Source: Bacteroidota bacterium
Lineage (GTDB): Bacteria; Bacteroidota; Bacteroidia; Chitinophagales; Chitinophagaceae
Direction of reading: 5' to 3'
NCBI GenBank assembly: GCA_018266555.1
Contig: JAFEAF010000014.1
Span: 98,181-162,180 of the forward strand
DNA length: 64,000 bases
This document shows, one piece after another, positions 20,711 to 43,922 of the stretch. The notes beneath the pieces were generated by a model. That model was not told the DNA's origin. It did not search any database and saw only the letters and a program-made list of their open reading frames with translations. The translations under genes were made by a program, and so were the position numbers. The number at the start of each line of letters is the position of its first letter. Position 1 is the stretch's first letter.

Positions 20711-23677
20711 ATGCAACGGATCGTCGCCATTCTTGCATACTTTTTTATTTGTGTAGATTGCATCGCACAGCAATATCCCTTTGTTCATTACACTCCTAAA
20801 GATGGTTTGGTAAACAGCCGGGTAAAAAAAGCTTACCAGGACAGCAAGGGCCGAATGTATTTTCTTACTTTCGGAGGATTAAGTGTATTTGATGGAGTGA
20901 GGTTTAGAAACTATACTACACAAAATGGACTTGCAAGCAACATAGTAAATGATATATTGGAAGTCGGGGACGATTCGTTATTGGTAGCTTGTAATGCACC
21001 AACTCTTATTGCTTTGGTGAAAGGAAAATTAGAGACAGTAAAGACAAAAGGTATTCCCTCTCCTCTTATCAATCAATTTTATAAGCATGATGATGATCGC
21101 ATTTATCTTTCATCGGATGATGGATTATTTCTATTGGAAAAAAACACAATCCGTGCTTTAAATATTTCCCGGATTACAAAAGAACAACCCGATCTTCCTT
21201 TCCTCGGAAATATTACCGGCATCGGCAATTTTTTGATTATTACGACAAACGATATGAAATTTAATAAGGGAATTTTTGTTTATGATATAAAAGCCAATCG
21301 CATTTGTGATGCATTACCGATGAGTGGTTATTTGGTTGGAAAAGATAAAAAGGACCGGATCTGGTTTACCACAAACGAAAAACTACTTATCGTAGACCAA
21401 AATGCTCTGCAAAAGGGAAAGCTTTTGATCACGGATCCCAAGGAGGGATTTCAGCAGGTAAAAGATTACTCTACCGTTAATCTCACATTTGATATTGACG
21501 CTATTTGGGTTGTATTCAGAAATAAGGAATTTAGAAACTCCGAGATCCGGCGTATCAATGAAGATGGAACGGTATTCAGTATGCCATTGCCGGAACAAGC
21601 TACCATTTCTTATATCAAAAATATTTTTATTGATCGTGAAAACACGGTTTGGCTGAGTAATGATGGCGAAGGTGTTTTTAAGATCATTAATTCTCCATTG
21701 CAGATCTCTGAAAAGCCTCTTGGTAAAACGATAGAAAGTTCGATTGGAAATGTTTTTTATTCTTCGGGAATTACATGGTATGGAACCACTACAAAAAAAT
21801 TGTTCCGCAGATCTGCGGATAAATTGGAGGAATTCAATTGTAATCTTCCTTTTGCTCCAGTAGTATTTTATGAATGGGGAAATGAGATTCTTGCGAATGA
21901 TGGGAAAAATATATATGAAGCTCTTTTTCGGCCAGCTAAAAGAATCATCGAATTCAAAAAGACTATTTCATTGCCTGACAGCGATTTTTTTATTAAAAAA
22001 ATTGTTACTGATAAAAATGGGGCCATTATTTCTGGCCAAAAAACCGGTATAAATGTATGGATGAATAATAAATCTGTTTTTCATTTGCCGATAGATAAAA
22101 ATGAATTGGCGGAAGAACTTTTTTTTGATAAGAATGATCGGCTTTGGATAGTGAAACGTTCCGGGGAAACAACTGTGTTCGAACTTCATCCTGAAAATCC
22201 TTCACAATATCTGCAACCTGTTTTTCGGTTTGAGAAAGAACAGATCATTGGCTCGCCACGAAGTTTTGTTATTGATAAAAAGGAGATCATATGGATCGGA
22301 ACAAGAAATGACGGGATCAGTGGGTATGAACAAAAAGGTAATCACTTGAAACAATTGTATCATTTTTATTCAGGCAATGGACTCACAGATAATTTCGTTA
22401 CCGCTTTGGCCTGTGATTCGTTGAATAATATTATAGTCGGCACTCAAACTGGCCTTGACCGTATCGTATTTGATTCAACAATCACATGGCGTATAGAAAA
22501 CCTTAGCAAGAGCAGTAATTTTTTTGGCTATATTAATCAAACATGGGCTGATTCAAAACAAGCCTATGCACTTACTCCCTCAGGAGTTCTTTTGCAGGTT
22601 TCACCAATTGTTGAAACAAAAAGAAGTACCAGTCCTGAATTATTATTAGAAGAGATGAGGGTGAATGCACAAATCATGACAGGGAGAACAAATTTTAACC
22701 ATAAAGAAAATAATATTAGTTTTTTGGTGGCAGCTCCAAGTTTTATTGACGAAAAACAAGTGACTTATACCTATTTACTGGAAGGCTCCGGAAACAATCA
22801 ATGGAGTGATACGGCTTCAACTAACGCAGTCATTAATCTTACCAATCTATCAGCAGGTGATTATACACTAAATGTGAAGGCTTTTTTTCCTTCTTCAACT
22901 TATCAGCCTGCAGCACTTTCCTATTCATTCCAGGTAATGCCACCCTGGTGGCAAACATGGTGGTTCCGAAGTATTGCCGGATTAATAGTTTTGGGAATAT
23001 CAGTTCTTGGATTGCGATTCTATTATAAACGGCGATTAGAAAAACAAATGGCCACATTGGAAAAACAAAAAGCCATTGAACAGGAACGAACACGAATCGC
23101 AACCGACATGCATGATGACTTAGGCGCCGGGTTATCCAGAATAAAATTTTTGACTCAATCGATACTTAATAAAAAAGGGAACGATGAAGTGGCCACTGCA
23201 GAATTGGAGAAGATAACTTTGTTCTCTGATGAGATGTCTGAAAAAATGGGCGAGATCATTTGGGCTCTCAACGAAAAAAATGATATACTGGCGGACCTTG
23301 TTGCCTATACAAGGTCTTACACTATGGAATATCTCGCCCAGCACAATATAGAATGTGAGGCCGATACACCTTTGCATTTACCCGATAATTTTATTACGGG
23401 AGAAATGCGCCGTAATATTTTTTTATCTGTAAAAGAATGTTTACACAATATTGTAAAACATGCTCAGGCATCGAAAGTATTTTTCTCCATACAATTGAAT
23501 GGAAGGATGCAGATCATTATTCATGACAATGGAAAAGGCATAGACTGGAATAACCAACGGGCATTTAGTAATGGAATTGAAAATCTCAAAAAAAGGATGA
23601 AAGAAATAAACGGTTCTGTAAGTTTCTCAAATGACGAAGGAACCAAAGTTTTGTTGACGATGCCATTAAATTTATAA
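20711..23677 (+). CDS. sensor histidine kinase (copy 1) with an extracytoplasmic beta-propeller-repeat/Y_Y_Y-type sensor domain; HisKA_3-type
   Basis: 988 aa. Signal/TM at the N-terminus, a ~700-aa repeat-rich sensor, PPWWQTWWFR plus a single TM, the H-box ERTRIATDMHDDLGAGLSRI, and an ATPase domain (HNIVKHAQA, HDNGKGI). It is a paralogue of 31172-34147. Confidence 0.9.
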   Translation: MQRIVAILAYFFICVDCIAQQYPFVHYTPKDGLVNSRVKKAYQDSKGRMYFLTFGGLSVFDGVRFRNYTTQNGLASNIVNDILEVGDDSLLVACNAPTLIALVKGKLETVKTKGIPSPLINQFYKHDDDRIYLSSDDGLFLLEKNTIRALNISRITKEQPDLPFLGNITGIGNFLIITTNDMKFNKGIFVYDIKANRICDALPMSGYLVGKDKKDRIWFTTNEKLLIVDQNALQKGKLLITDPKEGFQQVKDYSTVNLTFDIDAIWVVFRNKEFRNSEIRRINEDGTVFSMPLPEQATISYIKNIFIDRENTVWLSNDGEGVFKIINSPLQISEKPLGKTIESSIGNVFYSSGITWYGTTTKKLFRRSADKLEEFNCNLPFAPVVFYEWGNEILANDGKNIYEALFRPAKRIIEFKKTISLPDSDFFIKKIVTDKNGAIISGQKTGINVWMNNKSVFHLPIDKNELAEELFFDKNDRLWIVKRSGETTVFELHPENPSQYLQPVFRFEKEQIIGSPRSFVIDKKEIIWIGTRNDGISGYEQKGNHLKQLYHFYSGNGLTDNFVTALACDSLNNIIVGTQTGLDRIVFDSTITWRIENLSKSSNFFGYINQTWADSKQAYALTPSGVLLQVSPIVETKRSTSPELLLEEMRVNAQIMTGRTNFNHKENNISFLVAAPSFIDEKQVTYTYLLEGSGNNQWSDTASTNAVINLTNLSAGDYTLNVKAFFPSSTYQPAALSYSFQVMPPWWQTWWFRSIAGLIVLGISVLGLRFYYKRRLEKQMATLEKQKAIEQERTRIATDMHDDLGAGLSRIKFLTQSILNKKGNDEVATAELEKITLFSDEMSEKMGEIIWALNEKNDILADLVAYTRSYTMEYLAQHNIECEADTPLHLPDNFITGEMRRNIFLSVKECLHNIVKHAQASKVFFSIQLNGRMQIIIHDNGKGIDWNNQRAFSNGIENLKKRMKEINGSVSFSNDEGTKVLLTMPLNL

Positions 23678-23719
23678 CGTTCGTCATATTGGTAAATGTA
23701 ATTACCGCCATTAATTTTA
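23675..23719 (+). promoter_or_regulatory. island motif (diverged copy TAACGTTCGTCATATTG) + N20 + TAATTTTA box, upstream of regulator 1
   Basis: The 17-mer occupies 23675-23691; its first 3 nt are the TAA stop of the kinase. Exactly 20 nt later TAATTTTA occupies 23712-23719. The ATG is at 23727. Confidence 0.45.
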
Positions 23720-23726
23720 GACGCAC

Positions 23727-24353
23727 ATGCCGATTAAAGTTTCAATAGTCGAAGATCTTACTGAAGTAAGGGATGGCCTTGCTGAATTAGTTTCATCAGA
23801 TAAAGAACTCTCAATGGTCGGTAGTTTTGAAGATGCCGAGTCTGCGGTTCTAAAATTACCAGTGCTTCATCCTGATATTGTGATAATGGATATCAACCTT
23901 CCCGGTATGAGTGGTATTGATTGCATTCGAAGTGTAAAAGAAAAATGCCCCAATACTCAATTCATGATGTTCACTGTCTATGAGAACGATGAAAAAGTTC
24001 TGCAGGCATTACAAGCAGGAGCATCTGGCTATTTATTGAAAAGGACTGAACCACAAAGAATAGTCGAAAGTATAAAAGAGCTCAACCAGGGAGGCTCGCC
24101 AATGAGCAGCAATATTGCCCGCAAGATTTTAAATATTTTTCTCCAGGAAAAGAAAATAACAAAAAAAGAAATTTTGTCTGATCGTGAGAATGAAGTCTTG
24201 GAGCTATTGGCTGGTGGATTATTGTATAAAGAAATTGCAGAAAAACTTTTCATTACTCATGGTACGGTGCGTCAGCACATCCACAACATTTACGAAAAAC
24301 TGCATGTTAATAATCGGACCGAGGCCGTAAACAAATATTTCGATCGAAAATGA
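23727..24353 (+). CDS. NarL/FixJ (LuxR-type HTH) response regulator, copy 1
   Basis: Receiver domain (IVEDL...PDIVIMDINLPGMSGI...K) followed by a LuxR HTH (LSDRENEVLELLAGGLLYKEIAEKLFITHGTVRQHIHNIYEKL). Confidence 0.92.
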   Translation: MPIKVSIVEDLTEVRDGLAELVSSDKELSMVGSFEDAESAVLKLPVLHPDIVIMDINLPGMSGIDCIRSVKEKCPNTQFMMFTVYENDEKVLQALQAGASGYLLKRTEPQRIVESIKELNQGGSPMSSNIARKILNIFLQEKKITKKEILSDRENEVLELLAGGLLYKEIAEKLFITHGTVRQHIHNIYEKLHVNNRTEAVNKYFDRK

Positions 24354-24363
24354 CCTCCCCTCA

Positions 24364-24381
24364 CTATAACATTCGTTATAG
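24364..24381. promoter_or_regulatory. perfect 7-bp inverted repeat CTATAAC-ATTC-GTTATAG (candidate operator or weak hairpin)
   Basis: Read directly from the sequence. It shares the TAAC-N4-GTT core with the 17-bp island motif and lies about two helical turns upstream of the motif copy at 24389. Confidence 0.4.
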
Positions 24382-24388
24382 ACAATCC

Positions 24389-24433
24389 TGACTTTTTTTC
24401 TATTGTTTTCAATTCATCAGTCTTCTACCTTCA
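24389..24433 (+). promoter_or_regulatory. island motif (TGACTTTTTTTCTATTG, 15/17) + N20 + TACCTTCA, upstream of the OmpA-like gene
   Basis: 17-mer at 24389-24405; a weaker -7-like box at 24426-24433; ATG at 24476. Confidence 0.4.
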
Positions 24434-24475
24434 ATTTGACTTATCCTCACTCGAACTTTTAAATTAAGAATAGTT

Positions 24476-25708
24476 ATGAAAAGAATTTTTATCCTGGCAA
24501 CATTCCTTGTTGTTGCTACTCTTACGAACGGACAAATATTGAAAAAAATTGCTGATAAAGTAAAAAATAAAATCGGAACAACGCCAACAGAAAAAAAAGA
24601 CAATACTCAGAATAAAAAACCAGAAACAAATACTACAAATAATACGCAGACAGACGCCGACACGGTAAAAGAAAATAAATTCGCTTCATCTGCTATACTA
24701 AAAATTTATAGTAAATATGATTTTGTGCCGGGAGAAAAAATTGTTGTCTTTGAAGATTTCATGCAGGACGCTGTCGGTGATCTTCCCGCTAAATGGAATA
24801 CAAATTCAGCCGGGGAAACAGTAACAATCGAAGGAAAACAAGGACATTGGTTCCAATTGACCAAACCGGGCTGGTTCATGCCTGATTTTATAGATTCTCT
24901 TCCCCAGGATTTTACTCTTGAATATGATATGTTCGCAGACGCACCGGTGCACTCCTGGGGAATCACAACTTCCCTGGCTGAATTAAAAAACAAGGAGAAG
25001 CCTACCGACGAACAAGAGCATATCAATTCTTTCACATTAAACATAATCCCGGGAGTTGACGCAAATGGTGTCACTGAATATACTAGAAAAAAAAATAGCG
25101 TTGGTGAACAAGGAACCAATGCAAAGACCAGTCATTTCAGTGATATCACAAAGACTTACCATATAGCTATCTGGCGTCAGAAAGAAAGATTGCGTATCTA
25201 TTTTGATGAAGACAAAGCATGGGATGTTCCCAAAGCATTTTTGCCGGAAGCAAAACTGAATGCAGTTTACTTCTTCATGCAATTAACGGACAACTGGCAT
25301 TTTTTTATCAGTAATATCCGTCTCGCCGTTGGTGCACCGGATACACGCAATAAAATACTTACACAAAACAAATGGGTGACACACGGAATTCTTTTCGATG
25401 TGAACAGCGACAAGATCAAACCAGAGTCATACGGAACATTAAAGGAAATGGCAAATGTTCTGAAAGAATACACAGATCTCAAAGTAAAAATTATTGGACA
25501 TACTGATGCAGATGGAAGTGATGCTGCAAATCTTGATCTGTCAAAACGAAGGGCTGCCGCCGTAAAAGAATCTTTGATAAAAGAATTTAGTATTGATGCA
25601 AGCCGGATGGAAACTGATGGTAAAGGTGAAAGTGAACCGATTGATAAAAATGATACTCCTGCGGGGAAGGCGAATAATAGAAGAGTTGAGTTTATTAAAT
25701 CAAATTAA
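24476..25708 (+). CDS. OmpA-family (peptidoglycan-associating) envelope protein with an unknown beta-rich N-terminal domain
   Basis: Signal peptide MKRIFILATFLVVATLTNGQ. C-terminal OmpA domain: IGHTDADGSDAANLDLSKRRAAAV...NRRVEF. Confidence 0.85.
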   Translation: MKRIFILATFLVVATLTNGQILKKIADKVKNKIGTTPTEKKDNTQNKKPETNTTNNTQTDADTVKENKFASSAILKIYSKYDFVPGEKIVVFEDFMQDAVGDLPAKWNTNSAGETVTIEGKQGHWFQLTKPGWFMPDFIDSLPQDFTLEYDMFADAPVHSWGITTSLAELKNKEKPTDEQEHINSFTLNIIPGVDANGVTEYTRKKNSVGEQGTNAKTSHFSDITKTYHIAIWRQKERLRIYFDEDKAWDVPKAFLPEAKLNAVYFFMQLTDNWHFFISNIRLAVGAPDTRNKILTQNKWVTHGILFDVNSDKIKPESYGTLKEMANVLKEYTDLKVKIIGHTDADGSDAANLDLSKRRAAAVKESLIKEFSIDASRMETDGKGESEPIDKNDTPAGKANNRRVEFIKSN

Positions 25709-25721
25709 AAAAACTGTGGCA

Positions 25722-27875
25722 ATGCGAATACTGATATTCTTTTTCCTGTTTTCTTTTATTATTCAGCCTGCATTTACTCAAGTCCCTACTAAGCAGGAAA
25801 TGCAGAACCAGATGGCTCAGGTAGTTAAAGAATTGAATGAACAGATTGCTGACCTTGAAAAGCAAATTGCAGAAGCAAAGAAAAACAAGGAAGATGATTC
25901 GGTAATAAAAGAATTGCAAGACCAGATGGCCCTATTGAAAAAACAAGTGGAAATGATGGGTGGTCTGAAAAAAAACTTATCGGGCATCTCCGAGAAAACA
26001 ATAAAAAATATTGAAGCAGATGATAACAATACTGAATTACCCAAAAGGGATGTGGCAAGAATAAAACAATTACCCGATAAAATTCTTTCGGATGCAGAAT
26101 TGGTTCCCTATGTACAAAAAATACATGCACAGGTAGAAAACATCCTGACTCAAAAAGATAAAGCAGAAGCTCAAAAAATCTATGCTGCATTAAAAGCAGA
26201 AAAGAAATCATCCAACGAAATAAACAATACTGTAAGCAGTCTCTGGCTGAGCGGCTATACTGAAATAGCCTTGTATATAATGGGAAAAGAATGTGTTGCT
26301 AATATGAAAGATGTAAATATTCTTAACAACTATGCAGCTTTTCTTGCAATGAAAGGTGGCGAACATGCAGCGCTACCCATTCTTCAAAATCTGCACAAGA
26401 AGTATCCTGCTAACAGTACCATATTGAATAACATCAGCCAGTCCTGGTATGGACTGGGTGATATGAACAATGCAAACAGGTATCTCGATAGTACCGTAAA
26501 AATTTATAAGAATCATTCGCAAGCAAACCAAACCAAGAGTAAAATTGAAAAATCTGAAGGCAAGACACAGGAATCAATTGAATCTCTCAAAAGATCAATA
26601 AAAGAAAATTATACCCCTGAAAAAGAAGCGAGGCTGACTGAATTGGGAGGGAAACTGGAATATGATGATATAGTTTTTCGTTACCCGGCCAAAGCAGAAC
26701 CTTTAGGAATAGAAAAATTCATGTTCATAATACCTTCTTATCCATTTGTAGCAGGGGTCGAATCCAAGAAAGCCAGAATGGAATGGGATGATTTTAAAGA
26801 AAAGGTGTGGGCTGCTGTTAAAAAAATTGAAGATGATAGAAGAGTAATCGAAAAAAAAGTTGAAAATTATTCAAACCGTTTATTAACTAATCCGCTATTA
26901 TTAAAACCATACAATAATACGGTGTACTTAACATCTGCCCGCAAACTGAAACTACTCTATGATTGGTACACTGACAGGTTTCTGGCACTTGAAAAAAAAA
27001 GACAAGCAGCATCTGATTCAGTAAAAAAATGGAAGGATGAATTAAATAAAGTCATCCTTGCTCTTGGAGATGATCCGCAAAACCCAAATGCAAATTGTGG
27101 CAAAATTCAATCTTTATCAACGAGTTTTTTAACGAAAGCCAATACACTTTGGCAACAACGAAATGCAGAATTATTGTCTTTAAACAAACAAAAACTGAAT
27201 GCAGAAGCCACCTATAGCCTGTATGGCACTCATGATCAGTCATTATATGAGTTACAGATCGTAAATATCAAATTGTCATTTTTACTGTTCCTTGGAAATT
27301 TGGCCTGTGAATTTTCATCAGGTTGTACCACTACAACAGCTCAAAAACCTCCAGGAAAATTCTTGCCGGATTTTGATTCCCTGAACTGCCAATACAAAGA
27401 GGAATATAATATTCCACCATTTACCAATATTAAAATTGAATGTAATAAAATGACGACTGTGTTTGATATTGACACCGAACTTGGATTAAAGGTAAAATTG
27501 GGATGGGAAGAAAATCTTAATTCCGGAAAAATCACAAAAGGAACAATTGAAATGACTGCAGAAGCAGGAACAGACGTTGCTAAGTTTGGCCCGGTTGGAG
27601 CCGAATTAAAAGGAAGCGGGTCGGTAGGTGTTGAAATTACAAGTGAAGGTGTTCAGGAAGTTTACATCAAAGGAGCTTCTACCATTGATGTTTCCGGAAA
27701 TATTAATGGTGGCGAAATTACTCCCGGAGTACAATCAGATCCGAAAGGGATATCAGCTATGTCTGCTGAAGTAAAGATTAGCTGGAATGTTGGCGCTGGT
27801 CCTGCACAAGGCACCATGAACAGCAGCCTTAGTGGTGGTGGTATGCTGAATGCCGTTAATCTGAGTTTAAGATAA
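25722..27875 (+). CDS. secreted coiled-coil/TPR-like protein with a Gly-rich beta C-terminal module (copy 1), function unknown
   Basis: I place the start at the ATG at 25722 (MRILIFFFLFSFIIQPAFTQ, a signal peptide), just after the OmpA-like stop. The track's extension from 25593 overlaps the previous gene. It is a paralogue of 34894-36969. Confidence 0.7.
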   Translation: MRILIFFFLFSFIIQPAFTQVPTKQEMQNQMAQVVKELNEQIADLEKQIAEAKKNKEDDSVIKELQDQMALLKKQVEMMGGLKKNLSGISEKTIKNIEADDNNTELPKRDVARIKQLPDKILSDAELVPYVQKIHAQVENILTQKDKAEAQKIYAALKAEKKSSNEINNTVSSLWLSGYTEIALYIMGKECVANMKDVNILNNYAAFLAMKGGEHAALPILQNLHKKYPANSTILNNISQSWYGLGDMNNANRYLDSTVKIYKNHSQANQTKSKIEKSEGKTQESIESLKRSIKENYTPEKEARLTELGGKLEYDDIVFRYPAKAEPLGIEKFMFIIPSYPFVAGVESKKARMEWDDFKEKVWAAVKKIEDDRRVIEKKVENYSNRLLTNPLLLKPYNNTVYLTSARKLKLLYDWYTDRFLALEKKRQAASDSVKKWKDELNKVILALGDDPQNPNANCGKIQSLSTSFLTKANTLWQQRNAELLSLNKQKLNAEATYSLYGTHDQSLYELQIVNIKLSFLLFLGNLACEFSSGCTTTTAQKPPGKFLPDFDSLNCQYKEEYNIPPFTNIKIECNKMTTVFDIDTELGLKVKLGWEENLNSGKITKGTIEMTAEAGTDVAKFGPVGAELKGSGSVGVEITSEGVQEVYIKGASTIDVSGNINGGEITPGVQSDPKGISAMSAEVKISWNVGAGPAQGTMNSSLSGGGMLNAVNLSLR

Positions 27876-27963
27876 GCAGGTTAGAATTTTTCAATCTGCC
27901 TTTGCTGATAAATTGATAGTGACCTAAACCTTATAGTTTATTAATTGTAATCAGAAATTATAT

Positions 27964-29082
27964 ATGAAATTCTTTATTGCCATAATTTCCTTTCTTCTTC
28001 TGTATTCTTATTCATCGGGGCAGCGGTTTATAAAAACAACAGAGCCATGCACCGATGAAATATTAAAAAATGTTAAGGGAGAATGGATACACTGGGGTGA
28101 TCCGTGGTATGCAAAAGTTTCTAAACAGCAGGAGCAGGAAATTCGCAGCCGGGTAGCAACCATTCATCAATTTATTTATAACCTTCTTCCCTCATCCATT
28201 CCGGGAATTGATGCAGCATGGGGAATACATTCATCGGATTATGAGTTTGCACAGCAATCAACAAGAGAGCAGGTAACCGCAGATCAAAGCAGGCAAAAGT
28301 TCTTCAATGGTATTCCTCTTGTTCAGTACACTTATACAATCGGATTTTATGAATATTCCTGCGGTATTAGCGGGAACAATTATCTTATGAGAAAAGGATA
28401 CCCGAGGGAAGACGGGGCTGGATTTAGAGTTGCTGTAAATACGCTGAATCGTTTTATACGTACTGACCTTCAAGATGTGGAAGGGATGCAAATTGACGGA
28501 AGAAATATTAAGAGTATGCCTGACATAATAGGCAGCTGGAAGGGATATACATTATATCATTGTGAACAACTCGGCACTGCGGTTCTTTTACATCGGGATG
28601 GTATATTGCCGTATATGCCTGTTACCAGGAAACAATATCTTGAGTTAAGTATTAAACACTTCGAAAGATTTTTTGATGAAACTATCAAGACCTATGATGA
28701 GTTAGGTGATTTAATAGACAAAAAAACAAAAGATGAGAATATTAAAAGAGATCAAAAACAAAGGGATGAATTTTTAAATTATTATCGGAAGGAAATTGAA
28801 TCCACTACAAAAGCAGGACTGCTCGACTCACCTGCAATAACTCCTGCAGTCTTGCCAAGCTTTCCCGGTTTTCCCATTTTTATAACTCTTGAAGCAGGTG
28901 GTCATTTAATGGTAACAGAAAACTCAAAATACTTTCGCAAAGACCTCCCGAAATATATACCGCAATTATTTATTCTGTCTATAGAAAAAATGAAATGGTG
29001 GTTTATTCCAAAGATAGATCCAATAACAACTATCCTGGAAAGTTTCCCTATTGAAAAATTGCAGGCGATGATCGATAAATAA
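27964..29082 (+). CDS. secreted protein of the in-island '...AMIDK' family, member A, function unknown
   Basis: Signal peptide. Shared family motifs: GSWKGY, DGILPYMPVTRKQYL, LPKYIPQLF, and the C-terminus FPIEKLQAMIDK. Confidence 0.75.
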   Translation: MKFFIAIISFLLLYSYSSGQRFIKTTEPCTDEILKNVKGEWIHWGDPWYAKVSKQQEQEIRSRVATIHQFIYNLLPSSIPGIDAAWGIHSSDYEFAQQSTREQVTADQSRQKFFNGIPLVQYTYTIGFYEYSCGISGNNYLMRKGYPREDGAGFRVAVNTLNRFIRTDLQDVEGMQIDGRNIKSMPDIIGSWKGYTLYHCEQLGTAVLLHRDGILPYMPVTRKQYLELSIKHFERFFDETIKTYDELGDLIDKKTKDENIKRDQKQRDEFLNYYRKEIESTTKAGLLDSPAITPAVLPSFPGFPIFITLEAGGHLMVTENSKYFRKDLPKYIPQLFILSIEKMKWWFIPKIDPITTILESFPIEKLQAMIDK

Positions 29083-29089
29083 AATTTTT

Positions 29090-30217: not shown

Positions 30218-30246
30218 AACTTTACAATCAATTTCTTTTTTAAAAA

Positions 30247-34147: not shown

Positions 34148-34189
34148 CTTTTGTTCTATTGTTACACTGAATTCAAAAAAATACTTTCG
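34145..34189 (+). promoter_or_regulatory. island motif TAACTTTTGTTCTATTG + N20 + TACTTTCG, upstream of regulator 2
   Basis: 17-mer at 34145-34161; its TAA is the kinase-2 stop codon. The box is at 34182-34189 and the ATG at 34196. Confidence 0.5.
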
Positions 34190-34195
34190 AGCCGC

Positions 34196-34825: not shown

Positions 34826-34835
34826 TCTACAGAGC

Positions 34836-34880
34836 TAACTTTTGTGCTATTGCCCCGCTTTATCTGGCTGTGTAGCTTTA
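34836..34880 (+). promoter_or_regulatory. island motif TAACTTTTGTGCTATTG (16/17) + N20 + TAGCTTTA, upstream of the TPR-like gene, copy 2
   Basis: 17-mer at 34836-34852; box at 34873-34880; ATG at 34894. Confidence 0.5.
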
Positions 34881-34893
34881 GTAAAATATTTTC

Positions 34894-36969: not shown

Positions 36970-36970
36970 A

Positions 36971-38026
36971 ATGAACCAGTTTTTATTCCTGATCTTCCTT
37001 TTATTTTCAAACGCCTGCTTTGCTCAGGATTCAAAGAATGAAGCAAGGAGTTTTTATGAAAAAGAAATGGCTGTTTGCGGCGGAGAGGATTCCATATTCA
37101 GCAGAAAAGGAAAATGGAAAAGACAGGGTGAAGATAATTTAGTGTTTCCGGATAAAACATTTCCGAAAAGTCAATATAAATTTTCATTCGTCCGCCTCGA
37201 CAGCATTTTAGCGATGCTGATAAACAGCATCCTTGATTTAAGCGGAATGGAACCTCGCTGGCAAAGAATTATCCGGGAAGATGCTTATATACCTGGCGGG
37301 CCGGTACCCTACCATCTTTCTAATCTCTTTTTCACTTATTACTGTAACACTAACACGAACAAGATCCTATTGGGTGATGAAACTTTTAACTGGGTTTACG
37401 TATTTGTAAACAAAATGAATTGGTTTTTTCATGATGTAGATAAATGGATAATCAACGATGACGGTAAACCAAGAACCATTTACCAGCTTCCGCCCAAAGC
37501 CGGGAAATGGAAGGGAATGACTGTGTATGAACCGGATTTTTTCAATGGCACTCCGGCAAAAGTCACTCATCGGACTGTGGTGATCGGGCGCAATGGAAAA
37601 ATTCCCTGGCGAACGCTGACACAAAAAGAATATTTAACGGGACTGAAGAATGATTATGAAACGAAAGTAAAAAAATTTAAAGCGGGGTCCGGTTATGAAG
37701 CAGATTATAAAAATAAATTAAAGTACATCCATGACTATCTCTCCATCACCGATGAAGAAACCATACAACAGCCCGCTATCATTGATCCTAAATCGGGGAT
37801 TTGGGGTTTCAAAGGAAAATTCGGCGATGAAGAAGAAGGCGGATACCGCCTGGCGCTTTTCGGCGGCGGCACAAAATATTTTGATACCACCCTGCCCCGG
37901 TATGTTCCTCAACTTATTCAACTCATGTGGATATATAACACGAATGAGCCAGTGGCTTTACATTTCAAAAATCAATTTGAAGAAAATTTTCCTTTGGAAA
38001 AACTGAAAGCGATGATTGATAAATAA
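36971..38026 (+). CDS. secreted protein of the '...AMIDK' family, member C
   Basis: Signal peptide. GKWKGM, NGKIPWRTLTQKEYL, LPRYVPQLIQL, and the C-terminus FPLEKLKAMIDK. It starts 1 nt after the preceding stop. Confidence 0.75.
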   Translation: MNQFLFLIFLLFSNACFAQDSKNEARSFYEKEMAVCGGEDSIFSRKGKWKRQGEDNLVFPDKTFPKSQYKFSFVRLDSILAMLINSILDLSGMEPRWQRIIREDAYIPGGPVPYHLSNLFFTYYCNTNTNKILLGDETFNWVYVFVNKMNWFFHDVDKWIINDDGKPRTIYQLPPKAGKWKGMTVYEPDFFNGTPAKVTHRTVVIGRNGKIPWRTLTQKEYLTGLKNDYETKVKKFKAGSGYEADYKNKLKYIHDYLSITDEETIQQPAIIDPKSGIWGFKGKFGDEEEGGYRLALFGGGTKYFDTTLPRYVPQLIQLMWIYNTNEPVALHFKNQFEENFPLEKLKAMIDK

Positions 38027-38053
38027 ATGATCATATAAAAAGGAGAACTTAAT

Positions 38054-39688
38054 ATGAAAACCGTAAATTTTTATTCGGTTGGCTTCGTTGTCCTGATAAT
38101 AGTTGCTTTCTCACAACAGTCGCTCAGCCAACTGACCAATTTTTATAGCAGCCCCAATTATTCAAATTTCATTAGCACCATGATTGATAATAGTATCTGG
38201 AAATCATCTATGGAAAATTATACAAAGGGATATAAAGGCAACTCCTCCGTTACTAAATCCCCCTCTTCAATAACATCTAAGCCCGAAGAAATTCCTGAGT
38301 ATCGCAGGTACCGGGCAGTTCAATTCAAACCAACCGGCACTAGGCTGGTATTGCAGGAATATCTTGATGCCGTCAAGATAAACGCAGCAGATAAAATAGA
38401 ATTAAAAGATTTGATTTTGAAAATTTTTAAAGAATACGAGGCAGAAGCTGCGGCGAAAGGTTATCCGAATGACTGGGCTTTAGCCTTTGTTTCTTACGTG
38501 GGGCTTAATAGCCATGTTTATAATGGTAACACGGAAAAACTGATTATTCCTTTTGAGCAAAATGTGGGATTGCGGGATGTAGTAGCTGAATATGCTACTG
38601 ACAACGGGCTTTTCAACAATGTGACCGATCAAAAAAAACAAGAATTATATGAACTCATGATTATTGCCGGTGGGCTTACCTATCACTATTATGAAAAAGC
38701 CTGCAGGGAAAAAAACGGTGAAGACATAAAAAGTTGCCGGCTTTCTGCGGAGCAAAATTTAAAAATTGCAGGCATCATACCTTCTTTAAAAAAACAAGAT
38801 GATAACTCAAGCAATAATCAAACCATCATGAACGGCTCCATCAGTATGAATGATTATGAATTCATCCCTCCTGAAAATTGGGAAACCAATAAAAATAAAG
38901 ATTTTATTTCCATAAAGAATCCCAGGTCCGGATGTATCATTCAAATACTCACACCACAGCCTTCTTCCGGAAACATAGAGCAAGATGCAAATGCTGTTTT
39001 TGAAATGATGTACAAAGGATGGAGCTATCAGCAGCAAGGTGAAAAAAGTTTTTTATTGTCCACAGGTATTTTACCAAAGGGGCAGGAATATTTTATGAAA
39101 GAAGGAACGATGACGGGGTACAATGGTAACGGACAGTATCTCATTGAAGAGGGTGTTGCTATGGTAGTAAAAGCAGGCAGTAAGATTGTGATTATTGCTG
39201 CCCGGCATAACAGCAGTTCATTGGGCCACGATGAATGTTACAGGAATTACAATACGTGGAGGCGGTTTATAAACAGCTTCTCCATCAAAAATATTTTGCC
39301 CGAAAAAAATAATGCACCTGATGCCAGGCAGAGAATTTTGGGTTTGTGGAAAATTATTTCAACCGGAGTGGTATCTGCAGACTATGTATTTGCCGCCAAT
39401 GGAAATTATGAACATGGTGGCGGGATAGGATCTTCCACTACCACATCCGATATGTATTATAAATATATTTATAACCGGGCCTATCCTTTCCAGGGAAGCG
39501 GCAGCTATACGATTTCCGGCGATCAGCTTTTATTGAAAAAAAGAAGTGAAAACAATACAGAGCAAATAAGATTCCGGTTTGAAAAAATAAATCATGGAGG
39601 CGCCGGATGGAAAGATAAAATCTGGTTGTTAAAAAAAGATAATTTGGGAGAATCGGAAGTATGTTATGAAAAAGAAACGAAGGAATGA
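38054..39688 (+). CDS. secreted hypothetical protein (544 aa)
   Basis: Hydrophobic N-terminus ending SLSQ. No motif recognised. It is in the same operon-like run of genes. Confidence 0.65.
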   Translation: MKTVNFYSVGFVVLIIVAFSQQSLSQLTNFYSSPNYSNFISTMIDNSIWKSSMENYTKGYKGNSSVTKSPSSITSKPEEIPEYRRYRAVQFKPTGTRLVLQEYLDAVKINAADKIELKDLILKIFKEYEAEAAAKGYPNDWALAFVSYVGLNSHVYNGNTEKLIIPFEQNVGLRDVVAEYATDNGLFNNVTDQKKQELYELMIIAGGLTYHYYEKACREKNGEDIKSCRLSAEQNLKIAGIIPSLKKQDDNSSNNQTIMNGSISMNDYEFIPPENWETNKNKDFISIKNPRSGCIIQILTPQPSSGNIEQDANAVFEMMYKGWSYQQQGEKSFLLSTGILPKGQEYFMKEGTMTGYNGNGQYLIEEGVAMVVKAGSKIVIIAARHNSSSLGHDECYRNYNTWRRFINSFSIKNILPEKNNAPDARQRILGLWKIISTGVVSADYVFAANGNYEHGGGIGSSTTTSDMYYKYIYNRAYPFQGSGSYTISGDQLLLKKRSENNTEQIRFRFEKINHGGAGWKDKIWLLKKDNLGESEVCYEKETKE

Positions 39689-39741
39689 TGGTTTGATGGC
39701 TTGAAGGTAATTCTGTGAATTAATTAATAATCGCTATTGAT

Positions 39742-41064
39742 ATGAAAAAAATACTGACTGTTCTTTTACTTTTTGCCCTGCAAAGTTTAAATGCACAAAC
39801 AGACAGTTCATTGCTAAAATTTAATGAGTCTGGAGATTTTACCGGGTTTGGCGACCCTGATGGAAAACCGGTAAGTAAGGAAATAACTGTGGCAGGCGGA
39901 ACCATCCTTTCTGAGGACGGAAGAGTGGAATTAATTTTTCCAGAGGGCGCATTAACAGTAAATACCAACATCAGCATTCAGCCAACTACAAATCTTTTAA
40001 ATAGTGGAACAGGCAAAGCTTATAAGTTTGAACCATCAGGCATACAATTCAAAAAGCCGGTACAAATTATTTTTCATTATACAAAAGAGGAATCTGAAAC
40101 CTGCCCGGCTGACCTGATGAATATTGCCATGCAGGATCAAAATGGTAAGTGGAGTTTTGATAAATATGAAGAATGGGATAGTACCACAAATACTTTAAAG
40201 GGCTTTATCCATCATTTTTCTTATTACGCCAATTCCAATGGAGCCCGGATTTCACCGGCAAAGAATTTTATTATTGTAGAAAGTAATGTAAATATTAATT
40301 TTTATGACCGGTACGGTACTGTTCAGTCGGGTCCGCTTATCGGGAATAGTGATCGTCTTTCAGTAGGAAGCAGGTATTGGGTGGTGAATGGTGTCAGGGA
40401 AGGTAGTGATGTGGAAGGCTTTGCCACTGCGCCACCAATCGGCACTTCGCTGGGTGTATATACAGCCCCAAAAATAATGCCCCCAAAAAATCCGGTAGTC
40501 ATCCATCTGTTTTTTGAATACTATTCGGAAATATTAATGAAAGAAGTTTGGGGCGTAGTAAGCTGCAAAATCCTAGTGTATGATGAATATAAAATAGAGA
40601 TCAATCATGAATATACCGGAAGAGCATCCATGCACAGCAAAATTGGTGATAAAGGAACTTTCGTGGTTCGTGTTTCGCCAAATCGTAATTTCAGAATAAG
40701 TGAAATAAAAAACTATGAACCCGTTGTAATCAAAGAAGGAAGGAATGGTCCTTTCAAAGAAAAAGTGTTTACTGACGGTTACCCGGGAACTATTGATATA
40801 ACCGACTCCCATCTTTCAGACAGTTTAAGCCATGATTATCCTCCCGAAGTTTATTTTGAATTTGCGCCAAAGGAAATTGTCATGTGTGAAATTCAGCACA
40901 ATGCCCGGGGTATTTATGGGGAACGGGGACCGGTTACCTTTATGCGTGTGCCCGAAGAAATCAATTTCATTGCTAATGGACAGAAACAGCGCTATAACAT
41001 AACCATAGGGCGGGGTGAAACATATAAACTTATTGTGACGCCACACGGCAGGGGAAATCAATAA
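39742..41064 (+). CDS. secreted protein with an N-terminal ZU5-like domain carrying an HFS motif, followed by an Ig-like region and an unknown C-terminal domain (copy a)
   Basis: Signal peptide MKKILTVLLLFALQSLNAQ. ZU5-like pattern GGTILSEDGRVELIFPEGAL...ISIQP...YKFEPSGIQFKKPVQIIFHY...GFIHHFSYY. The HFS codons are at 40213-40221. Confidence 0.65.
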   Translation: MKKILTVLLLFALQSLNAQTDSSLLKFNESGDFTGFGDPDGKPVSKEITVAGGTILSEDGRVELIFPEGALTVNTNISIQPTTNLLNSGTGKAYKFEPSGIQFKKPVQIIFHYTKEESETCPADLMNIAMQDQNGKWSFDKYEEWDSTTNTLKGFIHHFSYYANSNGARISPAKNFIIVESNVNINFYDRYGTVQSGPLIGNSDRLSVGSRYWVVNGVREGSDVEGFATAPPIGTSLGVYTAPKIMPPKNPVVIHLFFEYYSEILMKEVWGVVSCKILVYDEYKIEINHEYTGRASMHSKIGDKGTFVVRVSPNRNFRISEIKNYEPVVIKEGRNGPFKEKVFTDGYPGTIDITDSHLSDSLSHDYPPEVYFEFAPKEIVMCEIQHNARGIYGERGPVTFMRVPEEINFIANGQKQRYNITIGRGETYKLIVTPHGRGNQ

Positions 41065-41127
41065 TAATTTTTTGCGAATAGGCTCCTAAATGAACAAATT
41101 ATTTTTTGATAAAGATTAATTCCTGAC

Positions 41128-41711
41128 ATGATACCGGTAAAAAAAACTTCACTGTCATTCTGGCTATCTTTATCCAGCAATTATCTGCACAGAATATTTT
41201 ATTTACCGCCAATTTTGAAAATAAAAAGATTGATTCGTCATCGTGGCAAATTGTAACCGGTAACTGGCGTATTTGCGATGTGGATGAAATGAGAATAGCC
41301 CCGGCAGAAAATGGTTACCGGTATATGTTACTGTCGGGCGGCAAAGGTTATACGGGTGATAATATTATTCGTCTCATTGTAGATCTGCCGGATTCGCTTA
41401 AAGCCAAAAAGATTAAACTAAGTTTCTCTTATTATATTCCCGCCAATGTAATGGGAACAAAAATGGAAGTTGAATTTATTCAAAAGGAAATAAAAGACGG
41501 ACGGAGAGGCATTCTTTGGGTAGATCTTTTACGACGTGTAAAAGAAAAGTGGACGGCCTATCAAAAAACAGTAAATGTTCCTGCGGGTGCCAATTCAGTT
41601 TACATCACTTTCTTTGGTTTTAAATCTTCAGGCGATAAAGACAGGATGGTTTGCTTTGATAATATTGCTGTTTCATGGATAAACCAATTCATTAAAAAAA
41701 CAACGGAATAA
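41128..41711 (+). pseudogene. secreted beta-sandwich (CBM/LamG-like) protein interrupted by a frameshift in an A8 tract
   Basis: The ATG at 41128 (MIPVKK) is in the +1 frame relative to the long ORF. That ORF is open from 41127 and reads ...KKNFTVILAIFIQQLSAQNILFTANFENKK...CFDNIAVSWI. The two frames meet at the A8 run (41139-41146), and A9 would fuse them. The track instead starts at an internal GTG (41280). Confidence 0.55.
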
Positions 41712-41753
41712 CTTTTGTTCTATTGCCGGTAAGAACCAATTCAGTTAGCTTTT
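41709..41753 (+). promoter_or_regulatory. island motif TAACTTTTGTTCTATTG + N20 + TAGCTTTT, upstream of ZU5-like gene b
   Basis: 17-mer at 41709-41725; its TAA is the stop of the preceding gene. The box is at 41746-41753 and the ATG at 41772. Confidence 0.5.
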
Positions 41754-41771
41754 ACACAAATTAAAAGCAAA

Positions 41772-43112
41772 ATGAAACAATTTTTCTTACTGGTTTTTTT
41801 ATCACTGTATGGAATATGTTTATATGCCCAAAATGACAAACAAAGTAAACCATATAGTACTCCCTTTGGAACTCCGTTTGGGAAAATTATCAGTGCAAAA
41901 ATTGATAGCCGGGGTGGTGAACTAAGATCGGAAGATAGCGGGCTTGAAATAATCATTCCGGGAGCTGCGCTTGATACCAGCACAACTATTTCAATACAAT
42001 CCATACATAACGAACTAAACGAAAATGACGAAGGCGCATATCAGTTGGAACCAACAGGAATAAACTTTAAAAAACCGCTTCAGCTCATTTTTCATTTTAA
42101 AGACTCAAACGTTGACATTAAACGTATCGGATGGCAGGATTCAAAAGGAATTTGGCATAGTGTAAATGGAGCGGTTATTGATACAGTACAAAAAACTATT
42201 TGCTGTTTTGTTTCACATTTTAGCCGCTGGTCCAGATTTGATAAAATTTATTTAAGCCCTAACAAAGCAAGGGTTAAAGTGAATAAAACCGTTTCATTTA
42301 CAATTATCAGCCTCGAAGATATCAGGGATCGTCTGGGCGATGAACTTTCCGCATCTTCGGATGATAACAGTAGTGATGATAATGCACTTTTAGCAGCACC
42401 ACATCCTTATCATTACTTTAGCAGAGAATGGACAGTAAATGGAATAGTCAACGGAGATAATACTGTTGGAACAGCAACGAAACAAGATAACCGCCATGCT
42501 GTTTACAAAGCCCCCGGCACCACTCCGCAAAACAATCCCGTTGCTGTTTCAGTACAAATTCTCTCAGATAAAAACCAAAAGCTTTTACTGACAAGCAATG
42601 TTACCGTCATTGGTGATCAATATCATTTCACCTACATTCACATTGACGAAAACGGATGTTTTTTTTTGGTGGATTCTTCAAGCTGCATTATCAACATGCA
42701 AAAAGATAAGGTTAGTATTTCTAATATCATCAATTATAAACCCTGGAGTGATTGGCCTCAGTGTGATAAGCCCTGCAAGACGACCTGGACCAACAAAGAA
42801 TCCCTTAAAGGCTTAGTAGAAATTACAGGCATTACGGGTTCAAGCGTAACGCCTGCTTCAGAAGGAGTGCTTCCAAATGTGAATATTGTTTTTGCACCCG
42901 CAATGGGTAATACACCCTCAGAATCAGTTACCTGCAAAGATCACAGCTTTAACGTTCCAAGCATGCCGAGAATGGCAGATCCAAAAATCATCAACTTTGA
43001 TATTGATGGCGACGATGTCATCATTCATTATGCAGGTAAAGCATCGAGAAATGAATTGGTGCTTACAGGCAAAGAAGAAAAAACGATGATTTACATCTAT
43101 AAGGTGAACTAA
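41772..43112 (+). CDS. secreted ZU5-like/HFS protein (copy b)
   Basis: Signal peptide. GGELRSEDSGLEIIIPGAAL...ISIQS...YQLEPTGINFKKPLQLIFHF...CFVSHFSRW. The HFS codons are at 42216-42224. It is colinear with 39742-41064. Confidence 0.65.
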   Translation: MKQFFLLVFLSLYGICLYAQNDKQSKPYSTPFGTPFGKIISAKIDSRGGELRSEDSGLEIIIPGAALDTSTTISIQSIHNELNENDEGAYQLEPTGINFKKPLQLIFHFKDSNVDIKRIGWQDSKGIWHSVNGAVIDTVQKTICCFVSHFSRWSRFDKIYLSPNKARVKVNKTVSFTIISLEDIRDRLGDELSASSDDNSSDDNALLAAPHPYHYFSREWTVNGIVNGDNTVGTATKQDNRHAVYKAPGTTPQNNPVAVSVQILSDKNQKLLLTSNVTVIGDQYHFTYIHIDENGCFFLVDSSSCIINMQKDKVSISNIINYKPWSDWPQCDKPCKTTWTNKESLKGLVEITGITGSSVTPASEGVLPNVNIVFAPAMGNTPSESVTCKDHSFNVPSMPRMADPKIINFDIDGDDVIIHYAGKASRNELVLTGKEEKTMIYIYKVN

Positions 43113-43154
43113 CTTTTGTTCTATTGTTATTAAATAACCAAGCCGGTAAATTTA
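43110..43154 (+). promoter_or_regulatory. island motif TAACTTTTGTTCTATTG + N20 + TAAATTTA
   Basis: 17-mer at 43110-43126; its TAA is the stop of ZU5-like gene b. The box is at 43147-43154 and the ATG at 43182. Confidence 0.5.
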
Positions 43155-43181
43155 AAATTTAAATCCTCACATATATTTAAA

Positions 43182-43868
43182 ATGAAAATTAATGTTGTCC
43201 TGATCTTAACAGTAAATCTTTGGACCTGTCAACAATCAACGGCACAAACGATTGTCAAAAAAGGAACGAAATACGATACCATTATCCGGAAGCATGTTAC
43301 GAAGCCGGTTCTAAAACCAAAGCCAAAAATTGCCATTGTAAAACCACCGGATACTACAAAAATAGTAGTAATGCCCACTCCGGAATTTGTGAATCAACCT
43401 TATTATTTTGATAAAGACAATAATAAACTGATAAAGCTGGAAAATGCCACAGCTCAAATGGTGACGAGGAAGAAAACATTAGGACTGAAAGGCGCTAAGC
43501 AATCGCTCACTATGGATGGCACATCATCGAATATCCGGTTTACGGCAAAAAAAGATATTGGCTTTATGATCAAAACAAGCGGCGATGTGATTGATCTTAC
43601 TTCTTATATCAAACTATACCAGTTTGTGCCATTAGATCAGAAGCGGGAAGTGACCATCAATTCAAAAGAAGGGCTATTGACTGACAAAGAAGAATCAAAA
43701 GGAAAGCTGATCAACTTTAGTGTAAAAATGATCGCTGCAGATAATTACCTGATCCAATTATCAGATCAATTAGAAGCTGGTGAATATGGATTTGTTTGGG
43801 TAAAAAATATGGAGCTGAAAGAGTTTATCGTTTTTGCTTTTGGAATAGACTGGAAAAGCAGTAATTGA
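43182..43868 (+). CDS. secreted hypothetical protein (228 aa), paralogue of 44567-45196
   Basis: Signal peptide ending STAQ. Motifs shared with the 209-aa protein: PEF.N..YF..KDN..LI.LE, L.G..SN.R, GEY.F, and the C-terminal FAFGI(D/N). Confidence 0.6.
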   Translation: MKINVVLILTVNLWTCQQSTAQTIVKKGTKYDTIIRKHVTKPVLKPKPKIAIVKPPDTTKIVVMPTPEFVNQPYYFDKDNNKLIKLENATAQMVTRKKTLGLKGAKQSLTMDGTSSNIRFTAKKDIGFMIKTSGDVIDLTSYIKLYQFVPLDQKREVTINSKEGLLTDKEESKGKLINFSVKMIAADNYLIQLSDQLEAGEYGFVWVKNMELKEFIVFAFGIDWKSSN

Positions 43869-43877
43869 TCCGTATTC

Positions 43878-43922
43878 TAACTTTTGTTCTATTGCCCGGC
43901 CCTAACTTTAATACGAACTTTC
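43878..43922 (+). promoter_or_regulatory. island motif TAACTTTTGTTCTATTG + N20 + GAACTTTC
   Basis: 17-mer at 43878-43894, 10 nt after the preceding stop. The box is at 43915-43922 and the ATG at 43935. Confidence 0.45.

Follow-up and report, generated by a model that had tools for sequence, protein, structure and literature searches.

In this study, we analyzed a 64,000-nucleotide (nt) stretch of the genome of a Bacteroidota bacterium of the family Chitinophagaceae (assembly GCA_018266555.1, contig JAFEAF010000014.1, positions 98,181 to 162,180 of the forward strand), hereafter termed the window, in which a 17-bp element, TAACTTTTGTTCTATTG, precedes two response regulator genes and several further genes. 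We consider it almost certain that this 17-mer is a functional promoter-linked cis-element. Its sequence suggests a composite promoter element, in which an inverted repeat for a regulator dimer is joined to a -33 TTG, and the adjacent LuxR-type regulators probably bind it and activate transcription. The region comprises two paralogous modules, each arranged as a kinase gene, a regulator gene, and genes encoding secreted or envelope proteins (the cargo); the kinase and regulator genes are termed HK1 and RR1 in the first module and HK2 and RR2 in the second.

Copies of the element in the window

A scan of the window for the 17-mer revealed four exact copies, at 34145, 41709, 43110, and 43878, and two near copies, at 34836 (one mismatch) and 24389 (two mismatches), all on the + strand. 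These six matches at three or fewer mismatches compare with 0.71 expected, and none of 100 shuffled sequences reached six. The copy at 23675 (TAACGTTCGTCATATTG), which matches at 13 of the 17 positions, is also genuine, because a conserved variant, TAAC[GA]TT[CT]GTCCTATTG, occupies the same place 5' of orthologous RR1-type regulator genes elsewhere. Both strands of the window were also scored by using a 48-column matrix trained solely on sites of other genomes. The matrix returned exactly seven positions (32.8-43.5 bits); no further position reached 8 bits, the maximum in shuffled sequence being 4.2, and no extra copies were found, including upstream of both kinase genes and of internal cargo genes. 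Because the matrix recovered exactly these seven sites, the list given in the initial annotation (four exact copies and one copy each at 16/17, 15/17, and 13/17) is correct and complete, and its by-eye impression that the element occurs only at 23.6-43.9 kb agrees with the matrix scan.

The initial annotation had further described a TAnnTTT-like octamer exactly 20 nt past the terminal TTG of every copy and an ATG 6-42 nt beyond that octamer; both features were found at all seven sites, with the octamers as listed there. The TAA of the element is the stop codon of the upstream open reading frame (ORF) in four of the seven copies, as had been noted (ORFs 20711-23677, 31172-34147, 41280-41711, and 41772-43112), and the perfect inverted repeat reported at 24364-24381 is present as CTATAACATTCGTTATAG. 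The description of the element as island-specific was refuted: the motif is family-wide in a widespread two-component family, and the locus, which has no shift in G+C content, looks like an ordinary chromosomal region. The sites, their -7 boxes, and a distal palindrome are listed below.

23675-23691, + strand: site 1, the RR1-type variant TAACGTTCGTCATATTG (33.8 bits); its TAA is the HK1 stop codon; predicted RR1 promoter
23712-23719, + strand: -7 box TAATTTTA of site 1; predicted start ~23724, RR1 ATG 23727, predicted leader ~3 nt
24365-24380, + strand: distal perfect palindrome TATAAC-ATTC-GTTATA; centre 22 bp upstream of the centre of site 2, predicted -65.5
24389-24405, + strand: site 2, degenerate proximal copy TGACTTTTTTTCTATTG (34.7 bits); predicted promoter of the OmpA-like cargo operon
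24426-24433, + strand: -7 box TACCTTCA of site 2; predicted start ~24438, ATG 24476
34145-34161, + strand: site 3, exact 17-mer (43.5 bits); its TAA is the HK2 stop codon; predicted RR2 promoter
34182-34189, + strand: -7 box TACTTTCG of site 3; predicted start ~34194, RR2 ATG 34196, predicted leader ~2 nt
34836-34852, + strand: site 4, TAACTTTTGTGCTATTG (32.8 bits); predicted promoter of the TPR-protein operon
34873-34880, + strand: -7 box TAGCTTTA of site 4; predicted start ~34885, ATG 34894
41709-41725, + strand: site 5, exact 17-mer; its TAA ends a frameshifted ORF; predicted promoter of the ZU5-like gene 41772-43112
41746-41753, + strand: -7 box TAGCTTTT of site 5; predicted start ~41758
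43110-43126, + strand: site 6, exact 17-mer; its TAA is the stop codon of 41772-43112; predicted promoter of the 228-aa secreted protein gene 43182-43868
43147-43154, + strand: -7 box TAAATTTA of site 6; predicted start ~43159
43878-43894, + strand: site 7, exact 17-mer (40.4 bits); predicted promoter of the outer-membrane protein (OMP) beta-barrel gene and 44567-45196
43915-43922, + strand: -7 box GAACTTTC of site 7, in which G replaces T at -12; predicted start ~43927

The unusual box GAACTTTC also precedes the homologous cargo gene in two other loci (L029 and L056).

Conservation of the element and its linkage to regulator genes

Genome contigs were scanned for homologues of the regulators, and 80 loci (59-92% identity; 20-kb pieces of relatives, 1.09 Mb in total) were obtained from metagenome-assembled genomes (MAGs) of Chitinophagaceae, Saprospiraceae, and Cytophagales. 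These loci contained 156 copies of the 17-mer at three or fewer mismatches, 148 of them on the strand of the regulator, and the copies usually lay approximately 51 nt 5' of the regulator ATG and again shortly past the regulator stop. Across the 156 sites, information was high at positions 1-17 and at the TA..TT of the box (positions 38-43) and approximately zero in the 20-nt spacer and the flanks. Because this set had been selected by the motif, the analysis was repeated on regulator genes found by protein homology alone, which yielded 114 distinct upstream regions, anchored on the -7 box. The box lay 3-10 nt from the ATG in 108 of these 114 regions, and 97 of the 108 box-bearing genes carried the 17-mer in the exact N20 register, with at most four mismatches. 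Conservation ended as sharply as in the motif-selected set.

An unbiased scan of metagenome contigs for the exact 17-mer yielded 139 sites. TA..TT was found at an offset of 20 in 78 of 135 exact matches, and every other offset was found at most five times. A regulator homologue was located on the same contig and strand for 52 of 81 box-positive sites, 15 of which were directly upstream of the regulator and 32 within 1.2 kb past its stop, and for 8 of 55 box-negative sites; the box-negative sites are chance matches in unrelated DNA. A few box-positive sites had 5-12 kb of upstream sequence containing no regulator, and since the same cargo families follow these sites, the regulon also has unlinked members. 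The layout of a -33 TTG, a fixed spacer, and a -7 TAnnTTT, together with the bases upstream of it, is thus conserved over approximately 200 loci of Chitinophagaceae, Saprospiraceae, and Cytophagales. The initial annotation had recognized in the window both this Bacteroidota promoter layout with extra conserved upstream bases and the position of the element before the two regulator genes and several cargo genes; the layout is kept, and the linkage recurs, across these loci. Many Chitinophagales genomes from soil and wastewater share the element, as judged by sequence comparison. The 17-mer, its common variant, and the distal palindrome were not found in the searchable literature, and keyword searches for this type of kinase and regulator in Chitinophagaceae or Bacteroidetes retrieved nothing relevant.

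These data bear on the notion that the element is a non-regulatory repeat, whether a mobile or REP-like sequence, an RNA structure or terminator, or a chance AT-rich word. Its weak inverted-repeat character and its frequent position at the 3' end of a gene, where it contains the stop codon, would suit such a repeat; among 237 distinct sites, the TAA of the motif serves as the stop codon of the upstream ORF in 76, and each other stop position is represented by six sites at most. Nevertheless, conservation ends at positions 1 and 17, the spacer and flanks are unconserved, and terminal repeats and duplications are absent. The orientation is tied to the downstream gene (the co-orientation with the regulator given above), the distance to the box is fixed, and the shuffle and matrix scans exclude chance. 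The context of the 17-mer folds no better than its shuffles (z = +1.07, -1.48, and -0.03), no Rfam family was found in the region, and the scan of the window revealed no terminator-like hairpin ahead of, or overlapping, any copy. We therefore regard a non-regulatory repeat as hardly tenable.

Anatomy of the site and geometry of the promoter

Positions -1 to 14 of the site form a 16-bp inverted repeat, TATAAC-N4-GTT(C/A)TA, beginning 2 nt ahead of the 17-mer. The symmetry described in the initial annotation is present, but the repeat is better drawn in this 16-bp, 7-2-7-like form than as TAAC-N4-GTT(C/A)TA. The base preceding the 17-mer is A in 60% of the 156 sites and the base before that is T in 45%; both are invariant in RR1-type sites. 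T15, T16, and G17 are conserved at a level of at least approximately 94%, and the spacer is exactly 20 nt long (19 nt in two divergent groups). In the -7 box of the same 156 sites, T38 is present in 151 and A39 in 156, although the selection of sites had used both positions; T42 and T43 occur in all 156, and T43 had played no role in that selection. The last two positions of the box are degenerate, with T in 66 and C in 63 sites at -6, and A in 71 and G in 55 sites at -5. In Flavobacterium johnsoniae, the -7 element extends from T-12 to G-5, and transcription starts 4-5 nt downstream (PMC6847099). By this numbering, the 17-mer spans -49 to -33, the centre of the repeat is at -43.5, and that of the distal palindrome is at -65.5.

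The same geometry could also serve an operator of some other protein, or a regulator that mainly represses by obstructing the -33 region. Occupancy of the site, which overlaps or adjoins the -33 element, could hinder the polymerase, and NarL-family regulators repress at some promoters. We consider this unlikely. The weakness of the -7 boxes at -6 and -5 is typical of activator-dependent promoters, the predicted centre at -43.5 coincides with an established position for activation by NarL, and the tandem arrangement at -65.5 and -43.5 resembles cooperative activation. In addition, no other DNA-binding protein gene is conserved beside the sites.

Of the 21 other RR1-type loci, 16 share the distal palindrome: a perfect TATAAC-N4-GTTATA, mostly with ATTC as its spacer, was found there in the interval from the regulator stop to the OmpA-like gene; where both were seen, its centre lay 22 bp upstream of the centre of the degenerate proximal copy. 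It probably helps load this weak proximal site cooperatively at the RR1-type cargo promoter. The palindrome alone folds (z = -2.69; an AT-rich 7-bp hairpin), and its changes in most orthologues fall in the 4-nt centre, which fits an RNA structure and a DNA site alike and lends the RNA structure no extra weight. A second perfect palindrome, GTATAGGAC-TTAA-GTCCTATAC, lies upstream of the regulator in L070. Multi-site promoters seem to be common in the regulon. Many cargo promoters elsewhere have an extra upstream copy of the motif without a -7 box of its own, 22 to ~130 bp from the proximal copy (L039, 5729/5751; L067, 10761/10793; L031, 4890/5023 and 11045/11177; L032, 10664/10777; L146; L147; and L130).

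Co-variation of the regulator and the site

The recognition helix of the regulators, TVRQHIHN, aligns with those of LiaR, VraR, DesR, and GerE. We also aligned it to the NarL helix, T-V-K188-V189-H190-V191-K192-H193. In NarL, base contacts are made by K188, V189, and K192 (PMC10853779). Among the homologues, changes of the helix at two of the equivalent positions accompany changes of the site. At the 189-equivalent, Q to I accompanies GTCATA sites (TAACTTT[CT]GTCATATTG). At the 192-equivalent, H to G accompanies AACAAAATACCTATGG sites (cAACAAAATACCTATGG at N19), and H to Y accompanies GTCCTAT right arms (a GGAC...GTCC palindrome in L070 and TGACTTTTGTCCTATTA in L047). The motif was not found with five unrelated LuxR-type regulators of the same loci, whose helices read TIDTHRKN or TVDSHRKN. 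The two paralogous systems also differ in the signatures of their sites: of 19 RR1-type sites, 18 had G or A at position 5 and 17 had C at position 11, whereas among the 80 others T was found at position 5 in 76 and at position 11 in 67. These differences may partly insulate the two systems in the window from each other. Linkage, helix/site co-variation, and the paralogue signatures all support the proposal of the initial annotation that the LuxR-type regulators act through a common site.

An element of different sequence but parallel architecture was observed in loci whose regulators form a divergent subfamily with the helix TVRQHIGK (L063, L073, L079, L082, L083, and L086). It reads cAACAAAATACCTATGG-N19-TAAATTTG, lies upstream of the regulator at locus positions ~9940-10000, and may constitute a natural specificity switch.

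The initial annotation had named a dedicated sigma factor as the alternative, in which case the 17-mer would be an extended -35-like element of an extracytoplasmic function (ECF) or other alternative sigma encoded elsewhere, and the regulators would be mere members of its regulon. For a transcription-factor site, the element varies unusually little; its asymmetry and its rigid distance to the box are, like this invariance, typical of sigma-factor promoters, and the GerE domain of the regulators gives weak matches to Sigma70_r4. The box, however, is that of the housekeeping Bacteroidota -7 element (T-12, A-11, T-8, and T-7), not an ECF -10; no sigma-factor gene was found within 18.7-45.2 kb; and over the approximately 200 loci the element tracks the regulator gene and no sigma gene. 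The palindromic variants and the tandem copies 22 bp apart fit a dimeric factor, and the variants co-vary with the recognition helix of the regulator. A dedicated sigma factor is accordingly disfavoured, and we judge it quite improbable. Two promoter models were also rejected. The ECF arrangement, an AAC-type -35 and a CGT-type -10 separated by ~16-17 nt, usually with a sigma/anti-sigma gene pair alongside, does not agree with the element in spacing or in type of box, the region 16-17 nt past AAC being unconserved spacer; a sigma-70 style scan gave 41 hits compared with 49.8 expected, showed no enrichment, and is irrelevant to this phylum.

Several observations nonetheless weigh against activation by the adjacent regulators. 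Conservation is asymmetric: the proximal arm and the TTTT spacer are near-invariant, and the two outermost distal bases are weak (the T and A at 45% and 60%), which is not what a simple symmetric dimer site predicts. The positions relative to the start all rest on the -7 consensus of other Bacteroidota, and a site at -51 to -36 could serve as a repressor operator. Phylogeny confounds the helix/site co-variation, and the correspondence is not one-to-one; regulators of the RR1 type, for example, retain Q and H yet prefer GTCC. The co-variation is therefore supportive, not decisive.

The TTTT spacer, the proximal arm GTTCTA, and the TTG hardly change even between families, in contrast to the loose outer distal bases, and this asymmetry leaves room for a further idea: the block may be a composite surface that the promoter-proximal subunit of the regulator and region 4 of the unusual primary sigma factor of Bacteroidota read together. 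Such an obligate, phylum-specific co-recognition would be coupled to amplification of the regulator alone, from a leaderless internal promoter over the kinase stop. We put this forward tentatively, as a doubtful though conceivable extension of binding by the regulators.

Probable autoregulation and predicted short leaders

The regulator genes almost always carry the site, and the TAA of the kinase gene typically supplies its first three bases. At the 108 box-bearing regulator genes, the distance from the box to the ATG is 3-10 nt, with a mode of 6-8 nt; the predicted leaders of the regulator mRNAs are therefore ~0-6 nt long. The autoregulation and near-leaderless regulator mRNAs proposed in the initial annotation are consistent with these distances. 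The 17-mer was found in none of 45 kinase genes examined. Since the kinase genes lack the element and the regulator genes carry it, only the regulator appears to be amplified by the feedback, through an internal promoter whose activity would add to read-through from the kinase promoter.

The kinase genes have a start region of their own. A conserved block, TTTctaagTAAATTTAAGT-ATG, lies upstream of HK1 (20692-20710) and HK2 (31153-31171) and of the homologous kinase genes in loci L007-L139. A -7-type box was located exactly 3 nt before the ATG in 39 of the 45 kinase genes, a spacing that is unusual because the usual 4-5 nt would put the start inside the ATG. No conserved -33 element accompanied the box in the 45 upstream regions, in which the 17-mer was likewise absent. 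This arrangement suggests that the kinase promoter is regulator-independent and the kinase mRNA truly leaderless.

The predicted cargo regulon

The ORFs beginning after motif-plus-box sites were clustered into families, the largest of which are listed below.

Regulator itself: 101 members
~225-aa beta-barrel OMP: 26 members
OmpA-like protein: 19 members
~232-aa secreted protein: 13 members, including the 228-aa protein of the window
ZU5-like protein: 12 members, in the window and 11 other loci
TPR protein: 7 members

These families are all represented in the cargo of the window, and they recur behind the motif, including at unlinked sites. Families absent from the window comprised a Peptidase_S74/YadA-head protein; a DUF418/acyltransferase membrane protein; NHL, PD40, and FG-GAP propeller proteins; and a protein with a type-IX secretion tail. 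Nearly all of the families begin with a signal-peptide-like sequence. The motif would mark a previously undescribed regulon of cell-envelope genes. The genes for the ~232-aa secreted protein and the ~225-aa beta-barrel OMP form a recurring two-gene cassette with a copy of the motif before each (L161, 1279/2046; L117, 875/1631; L189; L180; and the window, 43110/43878), sometimes on contigs without a regulator.

Proposed mechanism

From the observed conservation, geometry, gene association, and co-variation, we infer binding, activation, the start positions, and dependence on phosphorylation, and the following scheme is proposed. The kinase would sense a signal outside the cytoplasm and phosphorylate the regulator, a dimer of which would bind at -43.5 and recruit RNA polymerase to otherwise weak promoters; we regard these promoters as weak because their -7 boxes are non-consensus at -6 and -5. 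The gene of the regulator would be switched on from the internal promoter overlapping the kinase stop codon, and the feedback, acting through an mRNA with a 0-6 nt leader, would amplify the regulator only. Several operons encoding secreted, outer-membrane, and peptidoglycan-associated proteins would also be switched on.

Genes of the two modules

The genes of the two modules are as follows.

20711-23677, + strand: HK1, sensor kinase with Reg_prop repeats and Y_Y_Y, HisKA_3, and HATPase_c domains
23727-24353, + strand: RR1, response regulator of the NarL/FixJ family with a receiver and a GerE/LuxR helix-turn-helix (HTH) domain
24476-30882, + strand: cargo array 1, comprising the OmpA-like gene, the TPR-like gene 25722-27875, the paralogues 27964-29082 and 29090-30217, and 30247-30882
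31172-34147, + strand: HK2, sensor kinase, a paralogue of HK1 (39% identical) with the same domain set
34196-34825, + strand: RR2, LuxR-type response regulator, a paralogue of RR1 (58% identical)
34894-45196, + strand: cargo array 2, with sites 4-7, comprising genes for a TPR protein, 36971-38026, a DUF6683 protein, 39742-41064, the frameshifted ORF, the ZU5-like protein, the 228-aa protein, the OMP beta-barrel, and 44567-45196
43935-44567, + strand: outer-membrane beta-barrel gene (Pfam OMP_b-brl_2)

HK1 and HK2 are each ~990 aa long and comprise a signal peptide, the Reg_prop/Y_Y_Y region, one transmembrane helix, and the HisKA_3/HATPase domains. RR1 and RR2 (208 and 209 aa) match Pfam Response_reg and GerE; their best NCBIfam match is NarL (4e-41), which lies below the equivalog cutoff, and matches in the structure database were VraR, DevR, NarL, DesR, and LiaR. 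Several cargo proteins have no Pfam match, and several are paralogous within or between modules. The nearest relatives are Chitinophagaceae/Ferruginibacter-like MAGs. The G+C content is flat across the window, and the order of dxs, HK1, RR1, and the first cargo genes is identical in six near-identical metagenome contigs; a mobile island was rejected on these two grounds.

Across the modules, the TPR genes 25722-27875 and 34894-36969 are paralogous, as are 27964-29082 with 29090-30217 and 36971-38026, 39742-41064 with 41772-43112 (ZU5-like), and 43182-43868 with 44567-45196. Because the modules are paralogous beyond the kinase and the regulator, their sequences imply that the whole sensor-regulator-cargo unit was duplicated, after which the signature of the site diverged.

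The ORF ending in the TAA of site 5 (~41100-41711) has no in-frame start codon; its signal-peptide-like N-terminus is encoded in a different frame, which opens with an ATG and joins the ORF over an A-run near 41130-41140. The result is a frameshift, attributable to a homopolymer sequencing error, a pseudogene, or slippage, and an intact 178-aa homologue was observed 3' of a motif copy in L050. A terminator-like hairpin at 45212-45235, reported on the minus strand and followed by T-rich sequence, lies shortly past the end of 44567-45196, the final cargo gene, at the junction of the + strand array with genes on the minus strand, and may act as a terminator for both.

Significance and comparison with known systems

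Outside the gut Bacteroides, few activator-dependent promoters of Bacteroidota have been charted, and almost no regulators have been characterised in the Chitinophagales, a group abundant in soil, rhizosphere, and activated sludge. The motif (~33-43 bits) is sharp enough that the direct targets of this widespread two-component family, of which a genome often encodes several paralogues, can be predicted from sequence alone; the predicted members include OmpA-like, small beta-barrel, TPR, ZU5-like, tail-fibre-like, and DUF418 proteins. The system would provide a test bed for the operation of a NarL-type regulator with the divergent -33/-7 promoter and sigma, for the use of short-leader and leaderless mRNAs in Bacteroidota, and for the insulation of paralogous regulators with nearly identical sites.

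The -7 box and its surroundings resemble the Bacteroidota housekeeping promoter (-33 TTTG/-7 TAnnTTTG) of Bacteroides fragilis, F. johnsoniae, and Bacteroides thetaiotaomicron, with TA and TT invariant, a TTG ~20 nt upstream, and boxes close to the genes. They differ from it in that -6 and -5 are degenerate and the -33 element lies inside an invariant 17-bp block, whereas genome-wide in F. johnsoniae the -33 element is barely detectable (PMC6847099). The predicted leaders of ~0-6 nt at regulator and kinase genes also set the system apart from the Bacteroidota studied, in which such leaders are rare: approximately 3.7% of 5' untranslated regions in B. thetaiotaomicron are shorter than 10 nt, and 87% of leaders in F. 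johnsoniae are longer than 10 nt (PMC6847099).

With respect to the sensors, the kinases share Reg_prop repeats and Y_Y_Y with the hybrid two-component systems of Bacteroides, in which Reg_prop/Y_Y_Y periplasmic sensors are fused to a receiver and an AraC-type output. In contrast to those hybrids, the system described here has a HisKA_3 core and a separate LuxR-type regulator, and its cargo is no polysaccharide-utilisation locus. A dimeric LuxR-type HTH on an inverted repeat of ~14-20 bp that abuts or overlaps the -35 element is also found at the class II lux-box promoters of LuxR and TraR and at the RcsB box, LuxR and TraR being activated by ligands and not by phosphorylation. The half-sites differ from those of LuxR, TraR, and RcsB, and no lux-type synthase or RcsA-like partner is present here.

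The closest parallel is NarL. Both systems combine a regulator consisting of a receiver and a LuxR/GerE HTH with a HisKA_3-type kinase partner; both use a 16-bp inverted repeat whose two outer ends are TA and include tandem-site promoters; and the changes of the site described here map to residues aligned with the base contacts of NarL. The Escherichia coli yeaR promoter has a single NarL 7-2-7 site, a 16-bp repeat centred at -43.5 just upstream of -35 (PMC10853779), and the element likewise lies directly upstream of the -33 element, with its -43.5 centre estimated from the -7 box. The E. coli ogt promoter has tandem NarL sites at -44.5 and -77.5 (PMC10853779), 33 bp apart, whereas the tandem spacing here is 22 bp. 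Other differences are the half-site, which is TA(T/G)AAC(T/A) here, where binding is predicted, and TACYYMT in NarL; the Bacteroidota -33/-7 promoter; a beta-propeller/Y_Y_Y sensor in place of the P-box/HAMP of NarX; a regulon of envelope proteins in place of anaerobic respiration; and, unlike in NarL, a predicted autoregulation of the regulator gene alone from a promoter overlapping the kinase stop codon. By analogy, the element looks like a NarL/FixJ-family operator at a class II-like position on a Bacteroidota -33/-7 promoter, and what it reveals is not a new kind of mechanism but a known kind with a different half-site, sensor, and regulon.

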